Positions 8,856 to 55,055 of a stretch of DNA of 64,000 nt are shown piece by piece; within the stretch, counting starts at the first letter, position 1; each line of letters begins with the position of its first letter. Under the pieces are notes generated by a model that ran no database searches, was not told the DNA's origin, and was given only the letters and a program-made list of their open reading frames with translations. The position numbers and the translations under genes are program-made. Source of the DNA: Cyanidioschyzon merolae (Eukaryota); assembly GCA_000091205.1 (NCBI GenBank), contig AP006487.2; one strand, given 5' to 3'.

Positions 8856-9567
8856 TGGATGGGATACATCTTGCACAGGGACGCGCGATAAGCTCCTGTC
8901 GCATGGCTTTTAGAGCTCAGTGATGAACCGGCTCCAGGTGGGCGCTTCTATCGGCACCAGGTGTGAAGGCGCGGGCTTCTCTGATGCTGCTTCTCGTCCA
9001 GAAAAGGATGTCGAAGCCCGTCCTCATCACCGGGCAATCGGTATGGGTACCTCACGGGCGCTGCGCTGGAGCACTTTATGGATCCCCACTACCGAATACG
9101 ATACGCACCACGCCGTCGGCGATGCGCCACCGGCATGCCCTCATCTAGTGCGGACACGTTGCACGACGACACGCATGCGGCCGTGCGTGTGTTCCGCGCT
9201 GCCCATCACCGCTGGACACGTGCACAGCATCAGTTCGCGAACGGTGCGTGCGCGCGTGCATGGCTTCCGAGTGAGCGGCGGCGGGATATGCGTGCACAGG
9301 ACACGTGTACAGGTCGCATGCGTGCGTGCATGCGTGATAGAAACGAAAACACGGCGGCAGCGCCCTGGAGCATCACATCGTGCTTTCTTTTCTTGCTGTC
9401 GTTCATTCACCAAAGCGCATTCTTTTTCGGGATGTTACCGCTTTCACGGATAGACCGGAATCAGTTCCGCAATGAATTACGTGTGATCGGAGTATAGCAG
9501 GTGATCTGGAGTATCGATTACGATTCGCAATTGTCGGCAAGAAACTCGTGGGTTTACTGCGTGTGCG

Positions 9568-10959
9568 TCACTGCTGTTCGTGCAGTTCACGATCGAGTGT
9601 TTCCGATAAAGCCGTCCCGATGTCTGGTGTGTATTTCGCATCGTCCGGCGCGAGGAGCTCCTCGTCGCTAGCGCGCTCCTCTGCCAGCGACACGAAGAAT
9701 CGGATGGCTAACTGTTGTGCATACGCCGGCGTAGCGTCGTCCAGGGCGTGCGCACCCGGGGCCCCCAGATGGCTCTGGAACCATGCCTGGACGCCAGCGC
9801 TTAACTGCTCGACCCGCTCCGTGGGGTACAGACGCAGAACGGCAAGCCACTGGTCCGGAGAACCTGGCAGAACGGTTTCCGATTCTCCGAGGACAAGCCG
9901 GGCCGAGTCCCCAGCAATGCACAGCGGGATACAGCCAGCGCTCATGGCCACGGCGATACGTCCCTGCCAATGCGGACTCGCCGAAACCAAGCAGAAACGA
10001 GTGCTCGACGCCAGCGACCAGAGGTCCAGAGCGTCGCTGCTGGTGAAGAAGCGAACGTCAGTCTCGGCATACCAGGACGCCACGTAGAGTGATTCGGACG
10101 GCAGCAGCTGCGTCAACACGGAAACCGTATACGGCCGCGATTCCGTTGTCTTTTGTCTGGAGCTTGGCGCGTCGAATGCATTCGGAAAAGGCGGAACGAG
10201 CCAGCGCACTTCCAAGCTTGGCACGCTAGTGTCGAAGAGCATCTCAGTGGAGGACACGATAAGCGCAGTCTCGCCTGCGAGGATGACATGGCGACAGCGG
10301 CGACAACACGACTCTGAGCCACGGTTCGCCGCCAGTGCGCGACAAAGCGCTCGTGCAGCTTCGATGGGGCCGCGCGATGCAACGCTGGGCGAAGCGCTCG
10401 CCAGTAGCGTCACCAGGATATCAGCGGCGTCCGGGTCAACAGTGCGGTACGGATAGTGCAGCGCATACTGCTGCGCCGCATTCGCTGCCAACGCAGCGTA
10501 CGCTGGTACGTACTGGGATGCACTGCCGCCCCAGAGTTGACTATACAACCACCCAGGATACACGAAAATGCGTGGGGGCGTCAGATTCTGGGCCTTCGAC
10601 GTCCAGGCCCAGGACGTCGTTGACAATGTGGCAAGTGATTCGAGCGCACTGATGCGTCCCAGCTGAGCGTTCGGCGCTGACGCGGGTTCCGCGGTAGCCG
10701 CTTTCGCCCGGAACGGCGCCGAGGGGGTGTCCCAGAACGCCGCCGACGGGCTATCGCGGCTGGCGGCTAGCGCATCCAGCCAGTCCGCGAGGTTACCTCG
10801 ATCCGGAGCCATCAGTCGCAGCGTCGAATAGACTGCCAAGCATGCAATAATAAGGTGCACAGCCCAGCGTCGTAGGTGGTAGAGACTTGCGTTGGCGGAC
10901 CAGCGCCGCAGCAGCGACGCGTACGGCGTGACGCTACCTGGAAAAGGTGTCCGCAACAT
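9568..10959 (-). CDS. Exostosin-like (GT47-type) glycosyltransferase, type II membrane topology (putative)
   Basis: Long ORF; ORF-track start at 11130 is a GTG, first ATG gives MLRTPFPG... A single N-proximal TM helix (WAVHLIIACLAVYSTLRLM) precedes a C-terminal region with exostosin-like motifs (FCLVSASPHWQGRIAVAMSAGCIPLCIAGD...LP). Confidence 0.45.
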   Translation of the reverse strand: MLRTPFPGSVTPYASLLRRWSANASLYHLRRWAVHLIIACLAVYSTLRLMAPDRGNLADWLDALAASRDSPSAAFWDTPSAPFRAKAATAEPASAPNAQLGRISALESLATLSTTSWAWTSKAQNLTPPRIFVYPGWLYSQLWGGSASQYVPAYAALAANAAQQYALHYPYRTVDPDAADILVTLLASASPSVASRGPIEAARALCRALAANRGSESCCRRCRHVILAGETALIVSSTEMLFDTSVPSLEVRWLVPPFPNAFDAPSSRQKTTESRPYTVSVLTQLLPSESLYVASWYAETDVRFFTSSDALDLWSLASSTRFCLVSASPHWQGRIAVAMSAGCIPLCIAGDSARLVLGESETVLPGSPDQWLAVLRLYPTERVEQLSAGVQAWFQSHLGAPGAHALDDATPAYAQQLAIRFFVSLAEERASDEELLAPDDAKYTPDIGTALSETLDRELHEQQ

Positions 10960-11237
10960 CGGCTCTTGCGAGGCTGCTACGTCGCAGCTGCGAAGAGCGA
11001 CGGTCGGCCTAGGTCCTTTCAGCGCACGCGCACCGTCTATAAGCGTTGCGCTTTGCCCGAGGAGCGTTCCCGGGCTGGCCGAGTGTAGCGCGCGCGTCCG
11101 GCGGAGGGCCAGGGCTTCGTGCCGGCGCACGTCGCCGCTGTCTTTCTTCTCCAGCGGTGGCGCTCGACGCTGCTGCGTTCCAGGTACACCCGCGGCCGGC
11201 GACCAGGATCCAAACTGGTGGTCCGCTTGCGCAACCT

Positions 11238-12689
11238 ATGGATGCGGATCTGCTCGAAAAAGCCCGAGCACTAGCGGATCCGGCCTACGTTACTGTCGCC
11301 GAAGCCGCCCGCCGAAGTCGCACGGCGCTATTTCGTCAACTCCTTACCCAGCGAAGACTTTTGCCTCAGGGACTCGACGAGCACACCGTTCGTCTATTGG
11401 TCGACGAGCTCGCCGGCCTGGACGCAAACCAGTTTATAGACCAAGCCAACGTCGGCGAGCGCGAAGGCCGTATTTACAGCGAACTCGTGCGGGCGCGCCA
11501 TTTCGGAATGGCGCACGGCATGGGCCGGGCCGGCGACCTGGCTGCCTCGCAGCCCAAGGCCTGCGGTGCATCCATCCTCGTGCGTTTATGCGCGGCGCTA
11601 TTGCTGGATGCGCTCCATGTTGCCGGTTTCAGGAGCTGCCGTCGGGTCGCGCTGCTGCCGATCGCCACCGGCATGGCGATGACGCTGTGCCTGCTGGCGC
11701 TTCGCTGGCAGCGACCCGCCGCAGATCGCGTCCTCTGGATCCGCATCGACCAGAAAGCATGTCTGAAATGCATCAGAGCCGCTGGCTACCAGATTGATGT
11801 TCTGGAAAACAAACTCGATGGCGACCAGGTCGTCACCGATATGGAGGCGTTGGAGAAGCGTCTGGCAGCGAGCGACCCCAGCCGCTACGCTGCCGTCATC
11901 AGCACCACATCGTGTTTTGCGCCGCGTGCCCCTGACCGTGTTGTTGCTATCGCTCAGCTTTGTGCACGTTACGGCATACCGCACCTCATTAACCATGCCT
12001 ATGGCGTGCAGAGCCGCCGCTGCAACGGGCTCGTGTGCGCAGCGTGTCGCCTAGGTCGGGTCGATGCCGTCATTTTCTCGTTCGACAAGAACTTTATGGT
12101 GCCCGTCGGCGGCGCCGGCGTTGCTGGCACCTCCCCCACGTTCATCGAGGCAGTGGAGTCGTTATATCCGGGTCGCGCCTCCGTGGCACCGGTAGTGGAT
12201 CTGTTCATTACACTGCTCCAACTCGGCCGCGACGGCTTCTCGGGACTGCTGCGCGAACGCGAGCGTCGTTTCCAGCGCTTCCAGGCGCAGCTGGCGCCAG
12301 TACTCGCCAAGCACGGCGAACGACTATTGCACACGCCCGATAACCCAATCTCATTCGCAATCAGCCTGGAACACACCATGCTCGAGGGCGGCATCGAGCC
12401 AACGGCGATCGGGAGCATGCTGTACGCGAGGCGCTGTTCAGGGCCGCGCGCCGTGCTCGGCACCGAGCGGCGTCTCGTGCAGGGGGTGCTTCTAGCCGGG
12501 TACGGTGCGCATATCGCGGATTATCCGGTGCCGTACCTCAACCTGGCAGCAGCCATTGGGATCCGGGATATCGACATCGAACGATTCTGTCGCCGCCTGG
12601 ATGAGGTGCTGGGGCAGGTGCGCGGCACTCGCCACGCCTCTGCAGCTAGCGCGGCGCTTGGGCCCCGAGCCGATCCAGGTCCGCCATGA
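11238..12689 (+). CDS. SEPSECS: O-phosphoseryl-tRNA(Sec) selenium transferase (selenocysteine synthase, SepSecS)
   Basis: Near-collinear match to SepSecS across the whole protein: GEREGRIYSELVRARHFGMAHGMGRAGDLAASQPKA, RIDQKACLKCIRAAGY, STTSCFAPRAPDR, NHAYGVQS, SFDKNFMVPVGGA, YPGRASVAPVVD, LLHTPDNPISFAI. ORF-track start 11046 is upstream of the first conserved ATG (MDADLLEKARAL at 11238). Confidence 0.9.
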   Translation: MDADLLEKARALADPAYVTVAEAARRSRTALFRQLLTQRRLLPQGLDEHTVRLLVDELAGLDANQFIDQANVGEREGRIYSELVRARHFGMAHGMGRAGDLAASQPKACGASILVRLCAALLLDALHVAGFRSCRRVALLPIATGMAMTLCLLALRWQRPAADRVLWIRIDQKACLKCIRAAGYQIDVLENKLDGDQVVTDMEALEKRLAASDPSRYAAVISTTSCFAPRAPDRVVAIAQLCARYGIPHLINHAYGVQSRRCNGLVCAACRLGRVDAVIFSFDKNFMVPVGGAGVAGTSPTFIEAVESLYPGRASVAPVVDLFITLLQLGRDGFSGLLRERERRFQRFQAQLAPVLAKHGERLLHTPDNPISFAISLEHTMLEGGIEPTAIGSMLYARRCSGPRAVLGTERRLVQGVLLAGYGAHIADYPVPYLNLAAAIGIRDIDIERFCRRLDEVLGQVRGTRHASAASAALGPRADPGPP

Positions 12690-13761
12690 GGCGCGGCAGG
12701 CGCACCAGTCCGCGGATTCGTGCACCGACGCGACCGTCCCTGCGAATGACGAACGTGAGATCATCGCTCGGTTTCACATTCGATGCACGCGCACACTCTT
12801 CCCGGATCCAGGCAAGCCATTCCTGAGGATTCGCTGGGGTTGCGATCCAGAATGCATTCGCTCGTCTGCGGGCGGCATCCAGGGCAACGAGCCAAGCATC
12901 GAGCACACCTGAAGCAGACCGCGTTTCCGCGCTGGACGGCACTGTAGGCGTTTGTCGGGCCGCGTCCCAGAGGACTGGCACCCAGACAACGCTCCGCTGA
13001 ATGAGTGCATCCGAATGCGGCTCGGCCTGAGCGAGCCACTCGCGCGCTTTCTCCAGACTCGTGACAGTGATGATGACTCGATACTGCCCTCGCAGGGAAG
13101 CGAGGGGAAAGCGCCAGCGAGGTCCCGGCTCCGACTCTAGCTGTAGCGCAGCGAGGCGCGCTCCCTGTTGCATGCGCTCGAGGCGTCGCTTGGCAGCCAC
13201 ATCGTCCCAGCGGTAGAGTGCTGCACAGAGCACACCAGAGGTCACGTCGATACCGAGGTTGCGCGCAGCCTGCCACCAGCTCTCGGTGGCGGTTGCACTG
13301 CCCGTGAGGGCCACCAGGCTACTCAGCGCGATAACGCTGGCGATGGTTGCACTCGCAACGCCGCCGGCATAGAGAAACTGGCGCGCTTTGCGGAACGGTG
13401 CCTCGGCCTCCTCGCGTAGCTGCCGTCGCTGTGCGGCACTGAGCGCAGCACTTGCTGGTGGTTCCCGGATAGTGCGCGCCTCCCGGAGCTGCGGTTTCGG
13501 ATAGCGGCTCTCGGGCTCCGTTCCCTGGTGGCTGCTCACGCTCGCACAGGCAACTGGCACACGCAAGTGCTTCTTGTGTGTAGGCGAGGAGCGTGCCGAT
13601 GGCATAACTGCCGCGGTGCGCGTAGCGCATGCCGCACCATGCACCCACGCGGAGCGCGAGTACCTGCACTGCCGTGTGCACACCGCAGGTACAAAACCGA
13701 ACCACAGCGACTCCACGGTAAAAGCAAGTTGTCTCTGATGACGTGCCGGTCTCGAAACCAT
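12646..13761 (-). CDS. Hypothetical protein with one predicted TM helix
   Basis: 371-aa ORF with ATG start; hydrophobic segment ATIASVIALSSLVALTGSATA. No recognisable domain. Its 3' end overlaps the SepSecS stop by ~44 nt (convergent). Confidence 0.3.
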   Translation of the reverse strand: MVSRPARHQRQLAFTVESLWFGFVPAVCTRQCRYSRSAWVHGAACATRTAAVMPSARSSPTHKKHLRVPVACASVSSHQGTEPESRYPKPQLREARTIREPPASAALSAAQRRQLREEAEAPFRKARQFLYAGGVASATIASVIALSSLVALTGSATATESWWQAARNLGIDVTSGVLCAALYRWDDVAAKRRLERMQQGARLAALQLESEPGPRWRFPLASLRGQYRVIITVTSLEKAREWLAQAEPHSDALIQRSVVWVPVLWDAARQTPTVPSSAETRSASGVLDAWLVALDAARRRANAFWIATPANPQEWLAWIREECARASNVKPSDDLTFVIRRDGRVGARIRGLVRLPRLMADLDRLGAQAPR

Positions 13762-13982
13762 AAACTTGCAGCGGAGTTTGCTTTAAGTCAGTTCCCCGAA
13801 AGGCGTCGTGCGCTTAACCTGTTGCACAGGCGCACGTGCCAGCACAAAGTGGCAGCGTTATGGATCGGCGCACACCTGCACATAGCAGCGTTCACGTTTG
13901 TACCCGTGGCTGTGCAGCCCAGTGTTGTTGCAGAGTCTGCGTCCAGGAGAGTGCAAGGAAGCGGCATGGAACCGCACACCGA

Positions 13983-15345
13983 ATGAGGTCTCGTGATCGA
14001 GTCATCTACGAGTTTGACTCCGTTCCCGCTAAACTCTGTCTAATAGAAACATACATCGACTGAGGTCTCGTGATCGATTCATCTACAAGTTTGACTCCGT
14101 TCCCGCTAGACTCTGTCTAATAGAAACGTACATCGACTGAGGTCTCGTGATCGATTCATCCACGAGTTTGACTCCGTTCCCGCTAGACTCTGTCTAATAG
14201 AAACATACACCGACTGAGGTCTCGTGATCGATTCATCTACGAGTTTGACTCCGTTCCCGCTAGACTCTGTCTAATAGAAACATACACCGACTGAGGTCTC
14301 GTGATCGATTCATCCACGAGTTTGACTCCGTTCCCGCTAGACTCTGTTTAATAGAAACAAACATCGACTGAGGTCTCGTGATCGATTCATCCACGAGTTT
14401 GACTCCGTTCCCGCTAAACTCTGTCTAATAGAAACATACACCGACTGAGGTCTCGTGATCGATTCATCCACGAGTTTGACTCCGTTCCCGCTAGACTCTG
14501 TTTAATAGAAACATACATCGACTGAGGTCTCGTGATCGATTCATCCACGAGTTTGACTCCGTTCCCGCTAGACTCTGTCTAATAGAAACATACATCGACT
14601 GAGGTCTCGTGATCGATTCATCCACGAGTTTGACTCCGTTCCCGCTAGACTCTGTTTGATAGAAACATACATCGACTGAGGTCTCGTGATCGATTCATCC
14701 ACGAGTTTGACTCCGTTCCCGCTAGACTCTGTCTAATAGAAACATACACCGACTGAGGTCTCGTGATCGATTCATCCACGAGTTTGACTCCGTTCCCGCT
14801 AGACTCTGTTTAATAGAAACAAACATCGACTGAGGTCTCGTGATCGATTCATCCACGAGTTTGACTCCGTTCCCGCTAGACTCTGTCTAATAGAAACATA
14901 CACCGACTGAGGTCTCGTGATCGATTCATCCACGAGTTTGACTCCGTTCCCGCTAGACTCTGTTTAATAGAAACATACATCGACTGAGGTCTCGTGATCG
15001 ATTCATCCACGAGTTTGACTCCGTTCCCGCTAGACTCTGTCTAATAGAAACATACATCGACTGAGGTCTCGTGATCGATTCATCCACGAGTTTGACTCCG
15101 TTCCCGCTAGACTCTGTTTGATAGAAACATACATCGACTGAGGTCTCGTGATCGATTCATCCACGAGTTTGACTCCGTTCCCGCTAGACTCTGTCTAATA
15201 GAAACATACATCGACTGAGGTCTCGTGATCGATTCATCCACGAGTTTGACTCCGTTCCCGCTAGACTCTGTCTAATAGAAACATACACCGACTGAAGTCT
15301 CGTGATCGATTCATCTACGAGTTTGACTCCGGTCCCGCTAGACTC
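13983..15345. repeat. 77-bp tandem satellite, ~17.6 head-to-tail copies
   Basis: Unit gaggtctcgtgatcgattcatccacgagtttgactccgttcccgctagactctgtctaatagaaacatacaccgact repeated contiguously with a few point variants (c/t, a/t, aaact/agact). Each unit contains an inverted repeat ctcgtg...cacgag (6-bp stem, 11-nt loop). No unique spacers. Confidence 0.95.
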
Positions 15346-15985
15346 CATGTTTCGTACGAGGCGCTCGCGAGGATCACCCGCGTGATACTGGGACGCGCTC
15401 GAATGCGTTGCACTCACAGAGCCTCAGTTCTCACTGGTCCCCGTGGGGCATCGTATTTGGGACGGCTTCTGCCGATGCATCATGAATCTAATCGATATAT
15501 GTGTATCTTCAGTCAGCGTGGTGATTGCATCTGTATCGCTCTGCGAGGTGTCTGGGCTCTCCGCGAATGCGTATGGTGCCCGCATCGAAAGTTTCGACAG
15601 ACGGGGTGCCAGTGGTAAAGTGAGGCTGTAACCAGGCTCTTGGAAAGACGCGTTTATCGAACAGCGCTCTGTTCATGATGTAGAACGTGTAAACACGAAG
15701 CTGCAGTCACGACATGTGCTCTGTGAAAAACAACGAGGGCCCAGGTATGCTCTGGGCCATCGCTTGGAGACAGGCTCCCTCATCCTCCATCTGTTTTGCA
15801 CAGGAGAGAGGCCGCATAGTCAAGAGATCAGCGGCCTGACATGTGTACGATGCAAAGGTAGCAGTCAGAGCCTTCTGATCCACCGGGTGTTTCCAGGACG
15901 CCCGGCGCTGCACCTACGGAGCTCGCGCTTGCGCTGGACTCTAGGGTTCAACACCCGTAGCGCTTGTCTGTTTGCGGTCGGTACT

Positions 15986-16600
15986 ATGCTGCGTCTGGCC
16001 GAATGGAAAGACGCACAAACCACAGACGATGCAGACAAAAGTGACGAAGTTCGCAGCACCTCGCAACTGGCGAGCACCCCGCCGCAACCGAGTTCCCAGG
16101 TAGCTGGAGTGCCAACACCCGCGTCGCTACGCTGGCTGAGTCAACAGCGTCTCCAGCAGGACTTGACGGAGCTCGGCGTGACTGCACCGGAACTCGAGCT
16201 GCAGTTTCCGGACCTTTCGGATATCTCCCGGTTTATCGTAACGCTGTCTCCAGCAGAGGGCTGGTACAAGGGTCTGTGCTTTCGCTTTGCGTTTACGGTG
16301 CTGGAGACGTATCCTTTCGAGCCGCCACTGGTTCGCTGCCTCGACGCTGTCTGGCACCCTAACCTGGACGAACACGGTGCGGTCTGTCTGAGTATTTTAC
16401 GTGAGGACTGGCGACCCGTGTATACGCTCGTATCGCTAGTTCAAGGGCTTTTGCACTTGTTACTGGAGCCGAACCCGAACGATGCTCTAAACGCTGCAGC
16501 CGCCGAGATGCTGGTGCAAGACCCCGCCGCCTTTCAGGCTCGTGTTCACCAGCAGGTTCGGGAGCGCCAATACCATTTCGAGAACGCTGCACCTCCATGA
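15986..16600 (+). CDS. UBC12: NEDD8-conjugating enzyme UBC12 (UBE2M-like E2)
   Basis: UBC fold with HPN motif and active-site Cys: CLDAVWHPNLDEHGAVCLSILREDWRPVYTLVSLVQGLLHLLLEPNPNDALNAAAAEML; N-terminal extension typical of UBC12. First in-frame ATG with homology at 15986 (ORF track starts earlier at 15716). Confidence 0.9.
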   Translation: MLRLAEWKDAQTTDDADKSDEVRSTSQLASTPPQPSSQVAGVPTPASLRWLSQQRLQQDLTELGVTAPELELQFPDLSDISRFIVTLSPAEGWYKGLCFRFAFTVLETYPFEPPLVRCLDAVWHPNLDEHGAVCLSILREDWRPVYTLVSLVQGLLHLLLEPNPNDALNAAAAEMLVQDPAAFQARVHQQVRERQYHFENAAPP

Positions 16601-24544: not shown

Positions 24545-24930
24545 AAATTAAGGGATGAGCCGGGATGTAAACTCCTGAAGGCCGAAATGGAGGAACGTCA
24601 GCGAAGCACTTCGGATATAGAAAAGCCCGGAGCGCTGTTCGAGCAGCAAATGGCACAGAGGGCACGAGTTCGAGGACTCCGTGCACTGGTGCGTTCAACG
24701 AGCTCCAACAAACGCATGGAGTTCGTGAACAGGGACGAAAACGCTGCTATCAATATCAGACGATTTGCGGTGCCAAAAACGGGACCCGATGAGCAGACCC
24801 GATCCAACGTTGTGGGGTCAGCGTCTCAAACTCGAATTGCATATGGATAAACAGAAACAGGTAGCAGCCGGCAGGCAGGCAGGCAGGCCGTGCAACACTG
24901 GAAGGCGGCAGCACGTCGGTATACATTGAG
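24545..24930 (+). pseudogene. TnpB/Fanzor-like relic A: C-terminal RuvC-III segment plus conserved 3' non-coding tail
   Basis: Encodes QRARVRGLRALVRSTSSNKRMEFVNRDENAAINIRRFAV, matching the RuvC-III D-x-NAA-x-NI signature of TnpB/Fanzor. Nucleotide homology to copies C, B, D, E continues ~100 nt past the ORF end. No upstream nuclease domains remain. Confidence 0.45.
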
Positions 24931-29444: not shown

Positions 29445-32400
29445 CGCCACAGGCAGTACAACCGAGCATTTTGCCAGCAGCACCGCGCATGAGACGCAAA
29501 TCTACAGTTGTTGTGGCTGCATTCCTGTGCAATGACGACGGTTCCTCAGTGTATCGATCTGGACCTGGAATGTACTACGAAATGCTGCAAGCATCGAAGC
29601 GATGCTGTGTCGATATGCACCGGTTCCCCGCTGTATTCATATGCTCGATTCGTGCGGGACACGTGGAGGCTTCGACTCTCTGCGCCACCCTGAACAGAGA
29701 GCGTGCCCGCTACCTATCGCTTGTTACTTGCTACCGGTCTGGTTGGAGCGCTTTCATTGATCTCCTGGGGAACGCAGGAAAAAAGACCAGTTCGAGTCTG
29801 GCAATTGGAAAAGCGTGCCCCAAGTTTGACGCCCGTCTGAAGCATGCCATCACATCCTACGTCGCTGCTAAGGTCGTTTTCCGAATAATTAATTTCAGTT
29901 GGGGCTGCGTCGCCAAGCCGCGGACCCCGGATTTTTACTACTGTATCCATAGCGAACAGCGTAGTGCACTCCACTATAGGAAAACGACGAGTTGAGAGTC
30001 TCCTTTGGCACCTTGCTGACTATGATTTGGATTGCGAACTCCATGTGGAGTCGGTGCTGATCCGTTTTGCGCCAAGGAACAGCAAGTGTTCCATCCTTTT
30101 CCATAAGTGCTGTGGTGCAACGAACCACTTCAGCGAGCTCGAGTTGTAGAATCTCTTCGACAGTCCCTGTATACAGAGCAACTGCCTCTACTGCGCCAGC
30201 AAATGCGCTGATTGCGACTACGCAAGCGGTTCCCTGCTGACCGCAACACTGTGCAAGCGATGCTCAAGATACCGAGCGGTGCTCGGTACGTCCAAGATTC
30301 ACAGCTCCCAAGCTGTCGATTTCGCTTCAGAAAGCTGATCAAGTGGATGCTCCGTACAGCTGCGATTCGTAATGCAAACAAAGCACCAGGATACGCCTCG
30401 AGCGACATTGACCACAGACAGCTTGTAAATATGTCGCGATCGAGTCTATACATCGACTTTAGGGCAATTTGGGTTGAACGTGGGCATATTGCGCCACCCT
30501 CTTGCGCATCTGAGAGCACACCAGCACCCCAAGCATTCGACGCATAGAGGAATAGATCGCAGGCGTCGGGATCAAGCCGTGCCGCTTCCGCATGTCCGGA
30601 ATTTTTGCCGGCGATTGGCCAGATGCACGCTGCTACTACTGGAGCCAGCGCCTGCAGTATCTTGAGTAATCGTCAATTCCTGAGATGTTTTTGGTTGCAA
30701 TCAGAGCAGCGAATGTCCGATTACCCGTACCAGCACGCTCTTTTGGTTATTGTTTGGTTTTCTTGCAGGTATTCGATAAAAAGAATGCATCGTGTCGATC
30801 CGATTACAGTCGCTGGATGAATTGGTATTGTCTGTGGTAGCTCGCGAAAAGAACGGCCCCACCTGTGCCTGTCCTTCTATAATGAACTGGGGCATGAACC
30901 GCTTTTCTCATCGCTCTGATCCGACACGTCAGTCTCCCGCAGTAGAACCCTCCAGAACCTCTCTTCGACTGTTTCCTTGCCGATTGATTGTGTAGCGTAC
31001 TTGGATGAAGAAATACTACCAAAGTCACCGCTGGATTTTGACGCCTCCGTACCGCTAATGACAACGGTGATGAAGAGACCCAGAAATACGAATCGAAAAG
31101 CACGCCTGTATGCTAGATAGTCACGCGTCGAAGAGCGCAAGACTGATCTCGTCGTGAAACGCGAGCGCTTATCACAGGACGAACGAGAGTTCATCTCGTG
31201 CAACGAAATGTCCTTCGGGGGAAATGGTACACCTGCACTTGGCTACGCAAACCGGAGCAAACCACTGTTCTGAAAGACGAGCGAAACGGGACGGACGACA
31301 ACACCAGCCCTAGCAGCGATTTAATCCCTTGATCACCGAATCGTCGCCGAACGGACAAGATCGTTCAACAACTCGTGCTTGGTCGACGTATTCTGTGGCT
31401 TCTTTTTTCCCATTTTGTTCCGTCCGGCTCGTAGGTATCATCGGATTGCGTCAATCAGGAGCGGTCAAGGACACCGCAGCTGGCATCGCAGTTGAGCTGG
31501 TCTCTGTGCTGGCTTGTTTTCTCTGGCTCAATCGAAACGAATTCGTTTTTCCAAGACATCCCAGAGCATTTCTATGTTCATCGATGATTAAACGAATCTT
31601 TCGCGTTCGCGACACCAAAATATGCTGCGTACTTTTACGGATCGCAACCCCCCTTCACCGCGCTCGTCTTGCCTGGCTTTTCTGTTTCCTGCCTCGACGC
31701 GTCTCCTCAACCGATTGTTCATACAAGTTTCGGAAGCGAGATCGCCAGTTGTCTACACTCCACTCGATTTTTCGATCAAACCTTCGCGCGACAACACGAC
31801 ACAAATGTTCAGAGCAGATGATGCGATTCGACGTGAGCGAGGCATCAGCGTTTTGCGCATATGCGTACCAGCATATCTTGCCGCGTCGCCGCGCCATCTC
31901 GACGATCGAAGTATGTGAGGTGCCGGTCCTAAAACGTACCAGGCAAACCTCAGAAAGCAACATCATGTCCGGGTTCAGTTCGGGCGCTTTATGAGGCGCG
32001 CATTGTCGACGTTTTCCAGTCATGGTACTGGCCCAGAAAAGTGGGCACTGTTTGAAGGTATGCTACCGTTCAGAGAGAACACGAGCGATCAAGCGGCGCA
32101 CGCGGACGATCGTTACGGGGCGTTCATACGAGCGCGCGGAGGTCACCAACAGTTTCGGTTGTACAGAAGCAAGAAGCGTACATGCACTCACTTCGACTAA
32201 GAGTTGTAAACGAAAATCTCCGATATGTCGTGTGGTTGGGTGCCAGGCAATGGCGCTGGAAGCACTGGAGCGCGCGATGACTGCACCCTTGCGGACTTGT
32301 GGACGGCGTCCAACGAGTGCGGGAATCGATTCCATACGACTCCCGTAGATGCATTCAGGACGATGCCCTCGCATCAATAGCATGGGTGCTCAATGAAACA

Positions 32401-33692
32401 GGCAGAGAAAAAGCACCTGAAACAGAGCCGGATACACGAGACGGTGTACGTCAGGCCGAGCGAACATCAGCTGGCGAGAATATTGACGACCAGAGGATTG
32501 CAAAAGCGAGATTTCAGGAGCAAAATACCTCGATGTACATCCGGGAATGTCCGGTGTTCGCACAGCGCCCAACAGCTTGGTGATCAACGAACCTTTGAGG
32601 GAATCGCGCAGTACTTCGTGTAAACACGGATCTGAAACGCTGAAGACTTGCGATGGAAAACAACAGTGACCATGACAGCGTGTATTTCATCCATGTTTGA
32701 AGCAAGACACTTGTATGAGACGGTTCAGCAGTCCAGAATGGCTGCCATGCCCCATATATACACATGGAACGGTTTTCCTAGAAATTCATGAACGAATATC
32801 CTGCTCCGTAATTCGACTTGACGATGTACCGACATGCAAAGCGGCGTCCTAGGTGCTCTAGCCTAGACGCCCGCCCCCGAAGACCTGCACGGTGTCGCCC
32901 TGCGAGCCTTATTTACCGCACCATACATCCCTGGGATATTTATGATGGCTCCGGCCTTGAAGATCACGCGTTTGTGTGTACGTCAGCAGCGTCGATGCGT
33001 CGCTCTAAAATCCATCTACACAGGTGTTCACGGAATGCTCGGCATTTAAAAGCGAGCCCGCTCAACTTCGTATACAATGTGTCATGCATGTAGACTTGCA
33101 TTTTCGAACGAGATCCGTCATTGGGGCACCAGCTCGAGACTGATCAAGCATCAAGCTTCGTGCACGGTAGACAGGCTGTGCTATGAACGGTTCGGCATTC
33201 GACGCCAGGCGCTGAACCCAGACTTGCGTCACCGTACAGTGCGTTTAGGGTTCCATCAGCAGTGCCTCGTTCTTTGCGTTCGTCCTGCAATTCTCCAGGT
33301 CATAGAAGCGTATCCGCAGCATGAAACTGTTCAGTGTGAGCCGAAGTAGCAACATCCAGCATAGGCATTGAAGCGCGTGTCCTATAGATTCCAAGTGCCT
33401 GTGAGCGCTCCCGCACCGGCGATGCACCTTCGTACGAGGACGCGCTCCATACCAAGTCAGCCGAAACATTTCCTATGAATCAAGTGAGGCAGAACTCGCG
33501 ATTTGTGCACTAATCCAGAAGCACGCTTTCGGGAAAGCTTAGCAACAGAATTCGGGCGATTATGTTTTGGTCTATGGTCGAGTCTTGGCTGGGAATCCCA
33601 GCTACGCAATGGATACCGACGTCAGGGAAAGCGCTAACGCATACTCGGCACTCTACGGATTATATGAACGAGCCGTTGCCTCCAACAGGGAA

Positions 33693-34090
33693 TATGGATG
33701 TATCCGGCGAGATATAGAGACCTGGTGCGGAATGACTAGTGATTTCATAGGCACCGTTGAGGTAGTCGTCTGCAGGGAACTCCTGCTCGTGTCGCAGAAG
33801 CTGCGTTACCGCCACACCAGCATCGAGTGGTATCCGGCGAGATATAGAGACTTGGTGCGGAATGACTAGTGATTTCATAGGTACCGTTGAGGTAGTCGTC
33901 TGCAGGGAGCTCCTGCTCGTGTCGCAGAAGCTGCGTTACCGCCACACCAGCATCGAGTGGTATCCGGCGAGATATAGAGACTTGGTGCGGAATGACTAGT
34001 GATTTCATAGGTACCGTTGAGGTAGTCGTCTGCAGGGAACTCCTGCTCGTGTCGCAGAAGCTGCGTTACCGCCACACCAGCATCGAGCAG
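33693..34090. repeat. 130-bp tandem repeat x3
   Basis: gtatccggcgagatatagagacttggtgcggaatgactagtgatttcataggtaccgttgaggtagtcgtctgcagggagctcctgctcgtgtcgcagaagctgcgttaccgccacaccagcatcgagtg recurs at 33700, 33830 and 33960. Three overlapping minus-strand ORFs encode the same peptide (MKSLVIPHQVSISRRIPLDAGVAVTQLLRHEQEFPADDYLNG...). Confidence 0.9.
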
Positions 34091-36087
34091 GCAAGGCCCT
34101 CCCGGGCGATTCCCGGCGCTGTGCGCGAGCCCCGATCGTATGCACGCTGCCGCTGGCTAGCGTCTGAGCCCTGGTACGTTCTCTCCTCCGTCTTGTGCAG
34201 ACGATGCAGCGAGCCGTGCCTAGGATGCTTCAATCAAGTACTGGCCAACTTCGGACCGGGCGCGGGTGCTCGTCAGGGACGACTTTGTGGAAAGCTGGGT
34301 CTCGGCGTTGCAGTGCGTTCCACAGCTGTCAATCGTTGAGTGCTGAGAACCTTTATCAGCCCGCATCTCTGGCGCTGAGAACAGAGAATCGCCAAATCCG
34401 TCGTCTGGTAACGGTGGAGCCAGCGGGCGCGTCTCTTGGACGCACCGTGACAGGGCGCTTCCGCCCGGTTTTGGCGTTGGAACGCGTCGCTGCTGAGGCG
34501 GTCGGTCGGCTGGAAACGCGCAGCTTCACTTACCGCCGAGCTGGATGTACTTCAGGCCTGCTCCAGCTTCTTCTGGATGGAAAAAAAGCTCTAGATGATA
34601 CATAGATTCACCGGTTGGCTCCAGTTCTGCAGAGCGTGTGATGGAAGGCTCTCGCAGAGCTGAGCTGGCCGACATGCTGGCTTGCTGAAACAACTACTGT
34701 ACGCACCAGTGCGGTGTGTTGGTACACTGGCGGAAAAACGTGTGACGATTCGAGATGAAACCAGCAGTGGATAGTTCAGGCTCTCGTGATTAGAATATAC
34801 GCCGTGGGACTTGAAAGTATTTGAGCTCGTCTCCCTCAGGACATGTGCGGCTTCCTGGGTCTGAGGTTTGGAAACGAAGGACCGCAACGATGGGGCATTG
34901 CGCTCTCGAGAAACAAAGCACATTTCATTCGCTACGTTTCCATCATCACGCAGAAACCAGGACGGTAATCAGTACCGAATATCGGGCACTGCGCTTTGGA
35001 AACGACGCAGATTTCGTTGGTTATGTTTCCATTAACACCAAGAAACCATACTGGTCTTTGGTACTGCGGTCGAGGCTATGACACTGCCTGTGGCCCGACA
35101 ATGCCACCATGTTGTCGCCTGGCGGAGCACTTTCCCCTGTGATGCCAATGGATATTTTGTTCTTTTGTGCTGGGCGATCGATGAGCGTACCCAGAGTTCC
35201 CCGCATGCGCAATGATTACCAGCAACTGCAGGAGAGATCTTAGGCATGGTCGGGACGCTTCGGTGTACCTCAACATTCAGAGCAGCTTCTATTTTCGTGC
35301 ATTCGAGCTGAATCGATCCAGCGTACCTTCGGGCGTTGAGTCTCGTGTAGGACGCATGCTGCACCGGTGGACGTGCAGTCGCAGTCGCTTCGATGGCATC
35401 GGCTCGATACTCCGGTGTCTGGTGGAACCTGCGCCGGCGTTCTTCGCAAGCGTGGCCCGAATCAACAGCGAATCCCAAAGAGTCCAGCAAGGACGCGTCC
35501 ACAAATCTAAAGCGTAGCATCCAGTGTTCTACCAAAAAGTGCCAACCTTTGCCTGGTACACGGCGCTGGATCCCAGGAGCAGGCATGAACAGCACCGGCC
35601 TGTTTAAGAGTCCTCGAGTTCTGGCTCCGTGTTCAACCTCATAATGCGCAGCACTAGCGCAACTTTTTTGCCTGCAGCAATGCGAAGGAAAAGCGATAGT
35701 CGCAAATGTGGTATTCTTGAAAGGCCATAATTTTTACCGCATACGCAGATACCGTGAAAGCGTGCTGAGAAGCTATCTCAGGAAATGCACCGGAACACCC
35801 GGAACTCAACTGCAATATTCCCCAGCATATTCTAGTGGAACGTGCATACCAACCAAAATTCGATATCCAAGCAACGACAGGTTGCAGAGCGCAGACGCAC
35901 CAAGTTCCGCGCTTGCCGCACGAGTCTGAATTTGAATGCCACTGATCCGCCCAGCTGGACAACGCATTCGCGCTGCAAACGCTGAGCGAGCTGGTACCGG
36001 TGCCCGCAACGTTTAAACTGTGCTGAGCAGCGCGATACCATATAAATCCACAGCACGCGCGTTGAGCCACTGTCGGTGTCGGCGGTA

Positions 36088-41799: not shown

Positions 41800-42485
41800 G
41801 TCTGAGCGCGTCTTGTCGCAACGAACTCCAGAGACTGGCATGTTTCGCGTCTCGCATGATACGCTGGCCTCGTTTTAATGTTGCACCTCATTTGTGTTCC
41901 GCTTGCAGGTGCGTGTCATCAAGTGCTTCCTCGCGGGTTATAGCGGACGTGTTCAAAGAGCGTCCATTTTCAAAAATAAACTATCCTAGGGAGATGTGTA
42001 TGTATGAAAATCGGGGATCCTGATGTGCTAGTGTCGCCGGTTTCAACAGAAAAAACGAAAAATTCTCTTCTCACCGACCATCGAGCGAAGGAGAGCAAGT
42101 TTTATGAAAAAGTAGAAAAAGAGAGGAACGGCGGGTGAAAAGTTTTTGTATGCCTGATGTGACGATTACGAGACTGTAACGGGACAGAGGGCACACTGAC
42201 GAAGGCGCCTTGCATTGATGAGTCCCATCAGAGGCAGCAAACGCATGGAATTCGTGAACAGAGACTTGAACTCCGCCATCAAAATCAGACCATTTGTGTT
42301 ACAAAAGGCGAGGCGCGCGGAACTTACGTTAGCGAAAGGTTTGGGACAGCCTCTCAGGTTCGAAGTGTACACGGGACAAATTGAAACCGATATCTGGTTG
42401 CTGGTCAGAAAAAGGCTTCGAGGCGCCTGTGAGTGCGTATCATTTTCCCCTGTCGAGCCGACGCTCTCTGTGGTGCGGCATAGCC
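41800..42485 (+). pseudogene. TnpB/Fanzor-like relic B (~680-bp element; subfamily with relic D)
   Basis: Encodes SKRMEFVNRDLNSAIKIRPFVL; shares ~680 bp of nucleotide homology with 54380-55055 (e.g. gtgtcatcaa[a/g]tgc, atcgagcgaag[ga]aga[gc]caag, acagagggcac, gcattgatg) both upstream and downstream of the RuvC-III-coding segment. Confidence 0.45.
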
Positions 42486-43099: not shown

Positions 43100-46000
43100 T
43101 GAATTCTGGGAGCTGCCTCTCTCCTTCGTGATCATGCATGGAATGCATTGTTGTCGGTTGGCTATGCGGATTTGTGCTTGACACCCACTACAGAAGGAAG
43201 GCGTAGAGAGCACTAAACCCGTGTGCGCATCCGATCCGCTGGACCTTCCGCCTAGAAGGTAGCACGTGAGTTTGTTGGCCACTAATGAGCACTGAGGATC
43301 TGTTAGCGAACCATCAGTTGCCAGTGCTGCACTCAGAGTGAGTGTCCGGCCTTCGACTATCACGGTGTTGCCGAGCTGCTGCTGTCCTTCGAGGAGCTCG
43401 CTGCGCTCCTGCTTCTAGCGCGGCCACTGTAGGCCTAAATATGTCAGCGTCTCGGGGATTTCGTCTCGATAGCAGGTACAGTGTGACTCCCAGTGCGATT
43501 CCAGGGTTCCTATCCGGCTTAGAGCCGGTGCTGGTAGCCAGGAGCCACCAACGCTGATTTTGGCGAGCCACTGGGTACCTCGAGCAAGTCCCGGGAATTC
43601 CAGCGCCTCCCACCAGTAATTGCATGTGTATGCTAGGTTGTAGTTCCGGTATAGAGTCAAGCCGGCGTTACTCGCGCGACTGGTACTGTATCTACGTTCC
43701 CATATTGTTGTTCGGACCGTTCGCTTGAGGCGACGGGAGAATTCTATATTCCTGGGGAATGATTGGGTAGCGTGTTTTCGCCTAAGAGGCGCTTCAGCCA
43801 AATCTGCGCTGATTTCATCCAAGTGATCTTGCGGTGCGTTGGGGTCTGCATGGATATCCGACTGAACCAGGTGTTCATGGTTGGCCCTTTGCCCCATATG
43901 CGTGCCCGGCAGCCTGCTGCTATCGCCTCTGTCGAGGGTATTTGGAGTTCAAGTCCGAGTGCCAGCAGGTTGGTTGCTCTGCTCTGCATTGAGCATCCAA
44001 CTACAACGAGTCGCATTGCCCTGTTGGCGGCTGTCTGCAGACGCGAGGCATTTGTGTGCTTCATGCCGCACCATTCAGCACCACAGGTCGCAGGCTGGAT
44101 GATACATATCCTTAGTGCGCTGGTACGGATTGCTAAGGGGATAGAGGGGTCGGATAAGAATGGGCATGCGATCGCTGTACGTCTATGCATCTTGGCGATC
44201 ATCTCGTTAACGTGTGCCTTTTCGTCGAGCGTCGGCGTGAGACAGACCCTAGGTAGCGATATTTTTCCACGATTGGAATTTCCTGATTCTGCAACCGCCA
44301 CGAGCGATTGCGAATGCTCTGCGAGTCTCCATGGATGGCCATGACGCCGCACTTCGATGCTCCTATGCTCATCTCCCAGCGATCGGCCCAGGCGCTGACT
44401 TGTTCCATGCTAGCCGCAAGCGTTTCCGGGGCGGGTGCCAACAGCACGACATCGTCCGCAAATAGAAGGCCTGCGAGGCGGTTCCCATATGGGCGCTCCC
44501 CATCGGGCATCTCCACAGTCTATCCACGGCACCTCAAGCCCGTATTGTCTGTAGTTGTTAAGCAGATCGTTGATGAAGATGTTGAAAAGGAGCGGGGATG
44601 CAGGATCGCCCTGTCGCAGTCCACGGCGGATTCTTATCGAAGGGGTTCTTGAGCCGTCGCCTAGTCGGATGCGCATCCACGAGTCTGCATAGAGCGCACG
44701 GAAGAACGCTAAGCACTTTGCGGAGACTCCGGCTCGTTCCATCTTCATAAATGGAGCCTCATGCGGGAACGTGTCAAAGGCCTTTTGGAAGTCGACGAAG
44801 CATACGTAAGTTGGTTGTTGGTCGCTAATGAAGCGACGTTGCACCACTTCAATGAGGGTCAGGGCATGGTTCATGCACTCCTCGTGGCTCCGGAATCCAG
44901 CCTGTTCTGGGGCGAAGAACTTGCGTTCCTGGAGGCCGCTGTGGATACGGTTCGTGAGCATGGCGCGAAGTAGCTTCATGATTGACGGGATGAGGCGCAT
45001 AGTCCGGTAGATGTTCATGTCTGTGTGTGTGTGGGAGTCCTTTTTGAGGATCGGTACGACCTCGACAGCCCTCCGTACATCTGGGATGTACGCTTCTTCA
45101 AACATGCGTTGAATGAGCTCCAGAAGGCGTTTGCCTAAGATTGTGTCAGGTTCATCTGGTATCGATGGTGTCCCTGTTGTCCCGTCTTTTGGGGTCGCCA
45201 GTTTCATCCACTCCGCAGGGATACCGTCGATGCCAGGTGTTTTGCGATTGCTTGAGCATAGCAGAGTCCGAACAGATTCAGGCCAGAAAATTGGGTCGTT
45301 CCATTCCGGTACCGGGTCGAGGCGCGGTAGTTCTGCAGCATATCGGTGCCAATAGATTCGGTCTTAGCAGTGCCCAGTTGCGTCTTCATGTAATTCTGTG
45401 CCGTGGTCCGTCCAGGCCTCATTCACTGAGGCACGCTCCGTCCTCAGCGCTTCCTTTTAACAGTTGGTGTGAGCCCCAAGCACTTTCTTGGTGGGTCCAG
45501 TCTCGATCGGATGTAGCCTGGGGTTTCATCTTCGTTGGTGCTCTTCAGCATAGATTCCGCCAGGGAGGCCATTTTGCGGTTTCGATCCTCTCGTTTGTCT
45601 TCTCTGGAAAGTTTCTTCGTTCTTTTGATAGCTTCCTCATGTTGCGCCTGTAGCGCCGGTAGCGCTGCCTTCGCTTCCTTGTCTCCGGCGTTGGCGCGTA
45701 TGGCGGTGCGGTTGACAATCTTGTTGAGTCGGTGGCATTCATGAATCCGAGTTTTGGTACGTCGTTTGAGGTACTGCGGCTTGCTACTGTTGTGTTCAGG
45801 TGCAAGCAGTCCCAATTTTCTGGCAATCTTCTGATTCCCATCTACAAACTCGCGTGCCAATTGGTCTGAAGATTTGTATTCACGGCTTTTCGGATCTTCA
45901 GCGCTGTGAGCAGGTGCCTGGGATTGGCGACGGCTTTCTTGAGTTCCAGCTGGGGTGCCCTTTCGGGGGATACCTTGTGATGGGCTCGTTTGGGAGTTCT

Positions 46001-47348: not shown

Positions 47349-48990
47349 GTGGCAAGAAAGACGACTGTACAACGAGATGGTGGTGAAAGCCTTTCTTCTT
47401 GGACATATCAAGGATCCCTACAGGGAAAAGTTGCGAGACGCTATCGAAAAACGTGTCGACTCGTATTCCGAGAGTATTATCAAGGCGTCGTCAGGGCTGA
47501 TGCATTTGGCGAGGGAGATGTATCGCGACATGGCGCACATGGAAACAGTCGAGATTCCGGACGAGTTTCTCGACATGACCTTTATTTGTCAGCTAATGCT
47601 TGGTACAGCGGAAACGCGGAAGGAAAATGTGCTAGTGCACGCCCTCCACGAAGAACATACCTTTTACAGCTTCAATGGTACTCGATACAAGGTGACGGAG
47701 ATATTTACATCTATGGGGCGATGAAGTACCTCACGAATCTGAAGAACCATTTGACAATGAACCTCGAACGTTTCACGGTACGCGCCGTGTGTGCACTCTA
47801 CCCGGGCCTATCTCGCAAAGGAAAATGGGCGATTATCAATGGCATCACGAAAGATCGTAAGCATGAAGATGAGACGGATTTCGTTGACAAGAAGGCGTCA
47901 AACGAGAGCACGAATGAAGCTTCTGTAATCCGTGCTGCTATTCAAGAGCACCGTGCAATCCTGGGACTGGATTATCCAGCAGAAAAGATATCAGAGTTGA
48001 AAAAAGATAAGGAAACATACGATCGCCTCATTCTACGGTATTTCGTGTTTCTGGACCAAGAACTCGAACGCGAGGCGGAGATGAAGGTGAATAGGGGAAA
48101 AATGAAGAGTGGGAGAGACGGAAGGCTGTCCTAACGGGGAAGCGCTTCAACGTGGTTCCATTGTGCAACATCAAGTCAGATTTTGTGACCATCGGCTCCG
48201 GCGTCCTTTACGGCATCATGAAGCAGATCAGTCCGGAGTTCAGTGTCAGCAGGGAGGACTTCACCGGCGAAAACCGGGAGACGTACTGCAAGAGTATCTT
48301 CGATTTCAAACGTCTGAGAGTGAGCAAGCAAAAGTTGTTTACTGGGATGATCGTAACCGATGGAGTAGAATTGTGTGCAAACTATCGGCGGTTGAAGAGA
48401 GATCGGCCAGTCCCTCCCTCGGCTGCGCCCGTGACGAAGGATCAAGAAAACAAAGAGGTGTATCCTGCGACGCAGGAGGTGGAGGATAGAGACCTTGTCG
48501 TTGACGTGACCAAGGATGAAGAAAGGGAGGAGGCGGATCTTGCGACGCAGGAGGTGCAGGATTACGACCTTGTCGTAGGCGTGGACCCTGGGAATACGAA
48601 TGTCCTAACCATCGCAGCACCGAAGCGTGCGGAAGATGGAAAAGTGCCAGCGGAATCCTGAAGATATACAAAAGTACGGACCGCTGACGGAAGGGCGAAT
48701 GGAAAGGAGAGCGAAAGTTCGAGGATTGCTTGCATCAGTAAGTACAACCAGTGATGGCAAGAAACGGATGGAGTTTGTGAAGCGAGGTTTTAATGCCGCA
48801 ATCAATCTACGGAGATGTGCGGTGCTAGAGAATAAACCTCCAGACTGGACAAGAAGGAACCTTGTTGGACAATCTCTCAAAGGTGAACTATATGAGAGAA
48901 AGCTGGAAGCAGTAGTGGGTAGCCAGTCCAAAAAGACGGGGGGGGGGCGTCTGCACGTCAGCTGGAGACGATTTGTCTAAGGCGCGTTCG
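47349..48990 (+). pseudogene. TnpB/Fanzor-like OMEGA nuclease gene, most complete copy (C); frameshifted and internally deleted
   Basis: Collinear ORF fragments in frames 1, 0, 2, 0 (47377-47724, 47349-48134, 48152-48661, 48627-48980) join with single-nt shifts. Fragment 3 ends with a RuvC-I-like motif [17 protein letters not shown]; fragment 4 carries RuvC-III KRMEFVKRGFNAAINLRRCAV. RuvC-II and the zinc finger are absent (only ~70 aa between RuvC-I and RuvC-III). The 3' tail is homologous to relic A to ~48965. Confidence 0.5.
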
Positions 48991-54379: not shown

Positions 54380-55055
54380 AAGTCGCGCGTGCCGTGGAGG
54401 CGAACGCTGTCGTTCATTCGGCAGCGCTCGAGGCTGGCACCGACTTGCCCGACTAGATGCACTACTTTTTGCTCTTTGACCACAGTGAGATTGATTAGTC
54501 AGGTGTGTGTCATCAAATGCCTTATTCGGTTTATAGCAGATGGGCTGCAAAGTGCGTTCATTTAGAGAAATAGAGAATATAAGATATAGGTATGGAGATT
54601 GAAGTCGAGGATCCTGGATTGCCTCTGTCCACGGGTGTCGGAAAAGAACGGGAATTTTCTCATCTTTTCGACGATCGAGCGAAGAAGACCAAGAAGAGGG
54701 GAGATGGACCACAAAAATGTGTTTGCCCGACGGGGCGATGACGAGAATCTAATCGCACAGAGGGCACGAGTTCTGGCAATCCCTGCATTGATGCGTTGCA
54801 CCAGATGAACTGCATAGAACGGCTCGTGAACGGAGACTTCGACGTCACAAGCAATATCAGGAGATGTGCGGTGCTGAAAACGAGACTCGCGGAGCTGACG
54901 CGAACTAAATTCGAGTGGCAGCCTCTAATACCCCCAGTGTGCCTGGATAAAAACCGCAACCGATGGCAGTCGGCGGATAGAAAAAGACTGGGCGGTGTCT
55001 GCGCGTGGGCAGCTATATGTACTCTCGATGGTGGTAAAACATTGCACGTTTTATA
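54380..55055 (+). pseudogene. TnpB/Fanzor-like relic D (~680-bp element; subfamily with relic B)
   Basis: Encodes AQRARVLAI... and ERLVNGDFDVTSNIRRCAVL in adjacent frames (RuvC-III region with a frameshift); extensive nucleotide homology to 41800-42485 on both sides. Sits ~90 bp upstream of the PTC7 start, on the opposite strand. Confidence 0.45.

Follow-up and report, generated by a model that had tools for sequence, protein, structure and literature searches.

In a 64,000-nucleotide stretch of chromosome 5 of Cyanidioschyzon merolae 10D, hereafter called the window, the region between two protein-coding genes holds a 77-bp sequence that is repeated in tandem almost eighteen times (positions 13976–15345, no strand assigned). 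This raises the question of what kind of sequence the array is, how it came about and whether it has any function at the site where it lies. We shall argue that the array is probably a locus-specific, non-coding minisatellite (VNTR-type) that arose in the C. merolae lineage within the shared 5' region of a divergent gene pair, that turns over by slippage and exchange, and that most likely lacks a sequence-specific function. No description of the array was found in the literature searched.

Results

Organization of the array

The array was delimited by Tandem Repeats Finder (TRF) together with a table of its units, a 30-mer scan and the base composition. The repeat scored 2537 in TRF, with a period of 77 bp, 17.8 copies, 96% matches and no indels, the consensus unit being TGAGGTCTCGTGATCGATTCATCCACGAGTTTGACTCCGTTCCCGCTAGACTCTGTCTAATAGAAACATACATCGAC. 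The units follow each other head to tail without spacers over a length of 1.37 kb, with a GC content of 46.8%, and a 30-mer of the unit had 18 in-register matches in the 64-kb window compared to none in 100 shuffles of the window. The 77-bp array of about 17.6 copies without spacers, as described in the original prediction from the letters of the sequence, was thus real, with a copy number and extent as given here.

Counted against the consensus, the first two units of the array carried three variants each and the interior units between zero and two, while the final unit was incomplete and stopped after 53 nt. When the interior units were compared with each other, identity was 97.1% at lag 1 (97.08% at 77 bp), 98.5% at lag 2 (154 bp) and 99.1% at lag 6 (99.07% at 462 bp). 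Units located two apart and six apart were hence more alike than neighbours, which shows that the array has a higher-order structure. On the basis of the variant pattern and the identity at a lag of 462 bp, two consecutive copies of a six-unit block of 462 bp could be placed at 14292–14753 and 14754–15215, respectively (strand not assigned for either). The variants of the units in the first of these blocks came in the order T57/A69, A49/C73, T57, none, T57/G59 and C73, and the same order returned nearly unchanged in the second block. The higher-order structure that had been suspected on the basis of variant positions was in this manner borne out, both by the identities at lag 2 and lag 6 and by the recurring 462-bp pattern.

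The array lies upstream of two divergent genes

One of the flanking genes, at 12646–13761 on the minus strand, encodes an LPA1/Rep27-like protein with a DUF3493 domain (Pfam PF11998, E = 2e-19) that is residue-for-residue identical to the C. merolae 10D entry BAM79372.1 / XP_005535658.1. The other, at 15986–16600 on the plus strand, encodes a ubiquitin-conjugating E2 enzyme of UBC12/E2 M-like type (Pfam UQ_con, E = 4.5e-32), here called UBC, a homologue of which carries the JGI name 'ubiquitin-conjugating enzyme E2 M'. As judged from translation, the UBC open reading frame is open from 15716, with the first ATG found at 15986. Both genes have their 5' ends toward the array, from which they are separated by unique sequence as seen by sequence comparison: 214 bp on the DUF3493 side, counted from the ATG (13762–13975, unit-like only in its last 8 nt), and 640 bp on the UBC side, up to the first ATG (15346–15985), neither spacer being assigned a strand. 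The two divergent ATGs (13761, minus strand; 15986, plus strand) enclose 2,224 bp of shared upstream sequence, which contains the array, and with regard to these start codons the array thus belongs to the upstream region of a gene. Earlier, the flanking genes had been described as convergent or unrelated and the array as located downstream of the 5' end of the minus-strand ORF. The genes are instead divergent, and the array is found upstream of that ORF, whose ATG at 13761 is 214 bp away.

The flanks were also considered as possible decayed units, an explanation that was discarded since the neighbouring 77-bp blocks taken in register were near random identity and the boundaries were sharp. A scan of the locus for bacterial-type promoters and terminators was uninformative for a eukaryote. 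On the side facing away from the array, the DUF3493 gene and the SepSecS gene (11046–12689, plus strand) overlap by about 44 bp at their 3' ends, an overlap that was likewise called in all of the related contigs.

The unit is non-coding and its hairpin is at chance level

The array is non-coding, its period of 77 not being a multiple of three, and the presence of stops in six of six frames ruled out a coding repeat. Using ARAGORN we found no tRNA in the array, and searches against Rfam gave no match on either strand, neither at gathering threshold nor at E <= 10.

An inverted repeat of the form CTCGTG-ATCGATTCATC-CACGAG (example copy at 14144–14166, no strand assigned) was intact in 14 of the 18 units and not in every unit, as had first been stated. 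The right arm of the stem reads TACGAG in three of the other four units and TACAAG in the last one. These stem variants break the pairing and none of them was compensated, whether in the units of 10D or in those of related contigs. Folded as DNA, the unit reached -6.3 kcal/mol with a z-score of 0.48, with 136 of 200 dinucleotide shuffles folding equally well or better, and the opposite strand gave a z-score of 0.24 against its shuffles. Among shuffled 77-mers, moreover, 17% had a stem with 6 or more perfect base pairs around a loop of 3–15 nt. With folding at shuffle level on both strands, a stem of this kind in 17% of the shuffles and uncompensated stem variants, the hairpin was rejected as a functional structure; it is incidental and at chance level.

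The unit was found at one locus

As a probe in metagenomes we used a 19-mer that is invariant across the 17 full units. The scan returned five stretches, three of which represented the same locus with flanks about 99% identical (L018, L020 and L021), and the remaining two lay in unrelated contigs that had approximately 24 bases in common with the array and no further similarity, which was ascribed to chance. The unit was not found among 2.9 million viral contigs, nor in genomes covering 185,579 prokaryotic species, and it was thereby without a match in the viruses, bacteria and archaea of those collections. Within the 64-kb window, neither the 30-mer scan nor self-comparison revealed any related sequence outside the array.

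The uniqueness of the unit was in this way assessed over three metagenomes containing this alga and over the 64-kb window. Because one of these metagenomes assembles the alga in contigs of >100 kb, a second array elsewhere should have appeared. The original prediction had offered a tandemly amplified element and a satellite, centromeric or subtelomeric, among its options, and it had held that a unit unique to this locus would be a local minisatellite only. The unit was indeed confined to this locus within the metagenomes and the 64-kb window, and is therefore to be seen as a local minisatellite; the option of a tandemly amplified element holds in the form of a single-locus 77-bp tandem array, and the satellite option went unsupported, with a single locus, a length of 1.37 kb and 1.8 copies in assembled relatives. 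Satellite DNA occupies several chromosomal sites with long arrays of many copies, and what we found was instead 1.37 kb, with no second locus in the collections covered. A protein-binding array, likewise among the options offered, would be conceivable but had nothing specific in its favour.

Assembled array length and edge units differ between samples

Ten environmental contigs, about 99% identical to 10D, spanned the array (representing eleven loci, with one contig counted twice). Both the left and the right junction of the array were identical in all ten contigs and in 10D. Anchor-to-anchor lengths were 143, 220, 297, 374 or 528 bp in the environmental contigs compared to 1,375 bp in 10D, which corresponds to 1.8, 2.8, 3.8, 4.8 or 6.8 copies versus 17.8, in steps of whole 77-bp units, where the environmental values are lower bounds because short-read assemblies may collapse arrays. 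It was also clear that the unit adjoining the left flank carried variants that differed among the samples, with A22, A26 and G48 being variants that do not occur in 10D. Since the variants of this edge unit differ across samples, the arrays differ between populations, and these edge-unit differences are a more reliable signal than the assembled copy numbers. As read from the assembled sequences, a copy-number polymorphism between populations is suggested.

Several contigs were interrupted at or near this site. The contigs L015, L016, L020 and L021 terminate within the 77-bp array, those of L001 and L013 terminate approximately 230–240 bp past its far edge, and gene callers lengthen the DUF3493 ORF to 443 aa, so that it reaches the edge of the array. 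Assembly and annotation are repeatedly at risk at this locus.

Orthologous spacers of sister lineages

Cyanidiococcus yangmingshanensis (L002) has the same gene order of PIP5K, Rsm22, SepSecS, DUF3493 and UBC. The spacing between DUF3493 and UBC is 449 bp in that species and about 500 bp in a relative having 61% protein identity (L003). Using local alignments evaluated against shuffles, we found no significant similarity of these two spacers to either the 77-bp unit or the C. merolae spacer. A progenitor of the unit in the sister lineages was likewise sought and rejected, with alignments of the unit as well as of the whole spacer against L002 and L003 remaining at shuffle level. As the orthologous spacers have no detectable homologue of the unit, the array is younger than the split from both lineages.

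The spacer of the 61%-identity relative was seen to have a tandem duplication of its own, located at 915–1066 of L003 and identical in L022 and L023, with two copies of 76 bp that share 65/76 positions and that each contain GGTCTCGT and TCTCGTGG. Homology between this duplication and the C. merolae 77-mer was not established, the P value ranging from 0.03 to 0.4 by scoring scheme. The duplication reflects either recurrent instability of the spacer or coincidence; it may be a sign that repeats recur in this spacer and are possibly selected for. In L002, the UBC end of the orthologous spacer contains a direct repeat, about 35 bp long (9527–9562 and 9622–9658, 95 bp apart), with the annotated start codon of UBC lying inside the first copy. 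The true UBC start of L002, or an upstream ORF, may be different from the annotation.

Other repeats in the window

The window also contains a dispersed element of approximately 250–300 bp, present as four plus-strand copies at 24560–24900, 42089–42430, 48609–48950 and 54662–55000 that are 60–78% identical. One frame of this element reads KRMEFVNRD(E/L)N(A/S)AI(N/K)I and is followed by conserved non-coding sequence. Tentatively, we take this frame to resemble the RuvC-III motif 'DxNAAxNI' found at the C-terminus of TnpB/Fanzor nucleases; none of the ORF fragments of the element matched TnpB in Pfam scans. The four copies may belong to the 3.2-kb interspersed element that was reported to be present in 253 copies in C. 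merolae (Nozaki et al. 2007).

Two further tandem repeats were found, one at 33700–34087 with 3.0 copies of a 130-bp unit at 98% identity and another at 34878–35048 with 1.9 copies of an 89-bp unit, both situated within a stretch of about 3 kb (31994–35032) without any ORF of at least 150 aa. In addition, the minus-strand ORF at 44410–45207 matches the reverse-transcriptase domain RVT_1 (E = 3e-19) and constitutes a retroelement fragment in a strongly AT-skewed region at 44–47 kb.

Discussion

Probable nature as a young, neutral minisatellite

The array thus consists of a head-to-tail unit within the 10–100-bp range, found at one locus in the metagenomes and the window, and non-coding, as is the case for minisatellites. 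Its history probably began with a tandem duplication that arose within the intergenic region shared by the two flanking genes, LPA1/DUF3493-like and UBC12-like E2, after which the array would have grown, shrunk and become homogenised via replication slippage together with gene conversion or unequal exchange between sister chromatids. Turnover of this kind would be expected to yield whole-unit differences in length, fixed junctions, blocks of 154 and 462 bp and divergent edges, and population-specific variants are likewise part of the signature expected for a minisatellite evolving by slippage and unequal exchange. It is from this pattern of the array that we infer the mechanism. The best reading is that the array is young and fast-changing. 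It is probably neutral, as nothing that we found spoke for a sequence-specific function, and its sole probable effect would be that the two promoters have been pushed about 1.2 kb further apart.

Alternative explanations

The location of the array between two divergent start codons, at distances of 214 bp and 640 bp, would also suit a cis-regulatory module of variable copy number, in which each unit would carry a putative transcription-factor site, such as the inverted CTCGTG boxes or the motif TTCCCGC, and where unit number would adjust the transcription, or the chromatin, of one gene or of both, much as promoter tandem repeats do in yeast. The variation in copy number and composition between populations, as judged from assembled contigs, agrees with such a role, as do the 154-bp dimer periodicity, which is near nucleosome size, and the 76-bp × 2 duplication in the orthologous spacer of the 61%-identity relative. 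The 9-mer GTCTCGTGG is furthermore present in both sister-lineage spacers and GGTCTCGTG in every C. merolae unit, a sharing with a nominal shuffle P = 0.006. However, that test was chosen post hoc, with the motif picked after k = 7, 8 and 9 had been inspected, and alignments between the lineages, whether of whole spacers or unit to unit, were not significant (P 0.03–0.9). Elsewhere in the window, 8-mers of the GTCTCGTG type were not concentrated at promoters. The sequence TTCCCGC, which we take to be E2F-like, is a mere 7-mer that could be expected to match some known motif by chance, and since it is also missing from the spacers of the relatives we treated it as a chance occurrence. Alleles assembled at just 1.8 units also argue against a regulatory module, and altogether we regard such a role for the array as improbable.

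The low GC content of the region brings to mind the centromeres of C. merolae, with the array then being, or lying inside, the chromosome 5 centromere that CENH3 binds. According to published summaries of these centromeres (Kanesaki et al. 2015), each chromosome has one CENH3 region of 2–3 kb with a GC content of 48.4%, compared to 55% for the genome, and no other sequence pattern. The gene-free spacer of 2.2 kb that holds the array has the lowest GC content of the window, 0.476 over 14001–15500, and the array region thereby agrees with a description of 2–3 kb at a GC content near 48%. That agreement is not diagnostic, however, because at least three other stretches in the 64-kb window have a GC content of 0.48–0.50, and any single stretch would beforehand have a chance of a few per cent. 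An 18-copy satellite would also have merited reporting, whereas the centromeres, as summarised in the literature, have no other pattern; the orthologous spacer is just 450–500 bp in the sister lineages, the array of close relatives was assembled at 1.8 units, and the unit has no counterpart at the other loci searched. Should the array nonetheless be the centromere of chromosome 5, it would be the sole satellite-type centromere, made of a recently expanded repeat, among short and unique low-GC ones. Judged from these sequence features, a centromere role for the array is unlikely, and we give very little weight to the array being that centromere or a part of it. It is equally hard to see the array as tandem genes for small RNAs, be they snoRNA-like, tRNA-derived or of another type, in which every 77-bp unit would give one RNA and the hairpin would be part of its fold. 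The length of the unit is within the size range of tRNAs and C/D snoRNAs, and a CUGA occurs at the unit junction with GUGAUCGA found 8 nt downstream, but GUGAUCGA does not qualify as a C box and a terminal stem is lacking, so that a C/D-box RNA fails on both accounts. The blank results with Rfam and ARAGORN, folding no better than that of shuffles on either strand and the uncompensated stem variants all speak against small-RNA genes, which we therefore think most improbable. Finally, the other dispersed repeats and the reverse-transcriptase fragment in the window could make one think of a remnant, or an internal repeat, of a transposable element or a virus-derived insertion. The sharp junctions, the lack of flanking terminal repeats, flanks without similarity elsewhere in the window, the absence of the unit from the viral contigs and the lack of a second locus in the metagenomes all disagree with such an origin, to which we attach hardly any probability.

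Significance of the locus

As a minisatellite, the array is an ordinary kind of sequence that becomes somewhat conspicuous only through the repeat-poor genome of C. merolae, in which transposable elements make up 0.7% and one interspersed family another 5%. It represents a well-delimited case of recent birth and turnover of a minisatellite in a eukaryotic genome that is among the poorest in repeats so far known. Because its edge units and its assembled length vary by sample, the array could be used as a marker for strains or populations of Cyanidioschyzon. It also calls for caution when this alga is assembled from short reads or binned from metagenomes, where contigs break or collapse at the locus. 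Homologous recombination being efficient in C. merolae, the array should furthermore provide an easy natural test case for the effects of promoter repeats on divergent gene pairs.

Comparison with known repeat systems

Compared to centromeric satellites with higher-order repeats, such as alpha satellite, the array is similarly tandem, with a six-unit periodicity and a dimer sub-period near nucleosome size, but it is 1.4 kb long rather than tens of kb to Mb and it occupies a single locus instead of being common to the chromosomes. With the regional centromeres of C. merolae, as known from summaries of Kanesaki et al. (2015), it shares a stretch of some 2 kb that lacks genes and has a GC content near 48%, whereas no repeat pattern is reported for the known centromeres and the low GC content of the array is common to other intergenic stretches of the window. 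The location in a shared divergent upstream region and the apparent variability between populations are likenesses to the tandem repeats of yeast promoters. Such promoter repeats are reportedly variable in yeast. They are mostly short AT-rich units affecting nucleosome occupancy, which differs from the long unit of mixed composition in C. merolae.

The closest likeness is that to minisatellites of the VNTR type, i.e. single-locus arrays with units of about 10–100 bp. There are two differences, namely that the copy-number polymorphism of the array is known from short-read assemblies only, and that the host genome is unusually poor in repeats, making an 18-copy array more conspicuous than it would be in animals or plants. 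With these minisatellites the array shares a 77-bp unit repeated head to tail over 1.37 kb at one locus, differences in assembled length by whole units among related genomes within fixed boundaries, internal variants arranged in higher-order blocks, and edge units that are more divergent than those of the interior.
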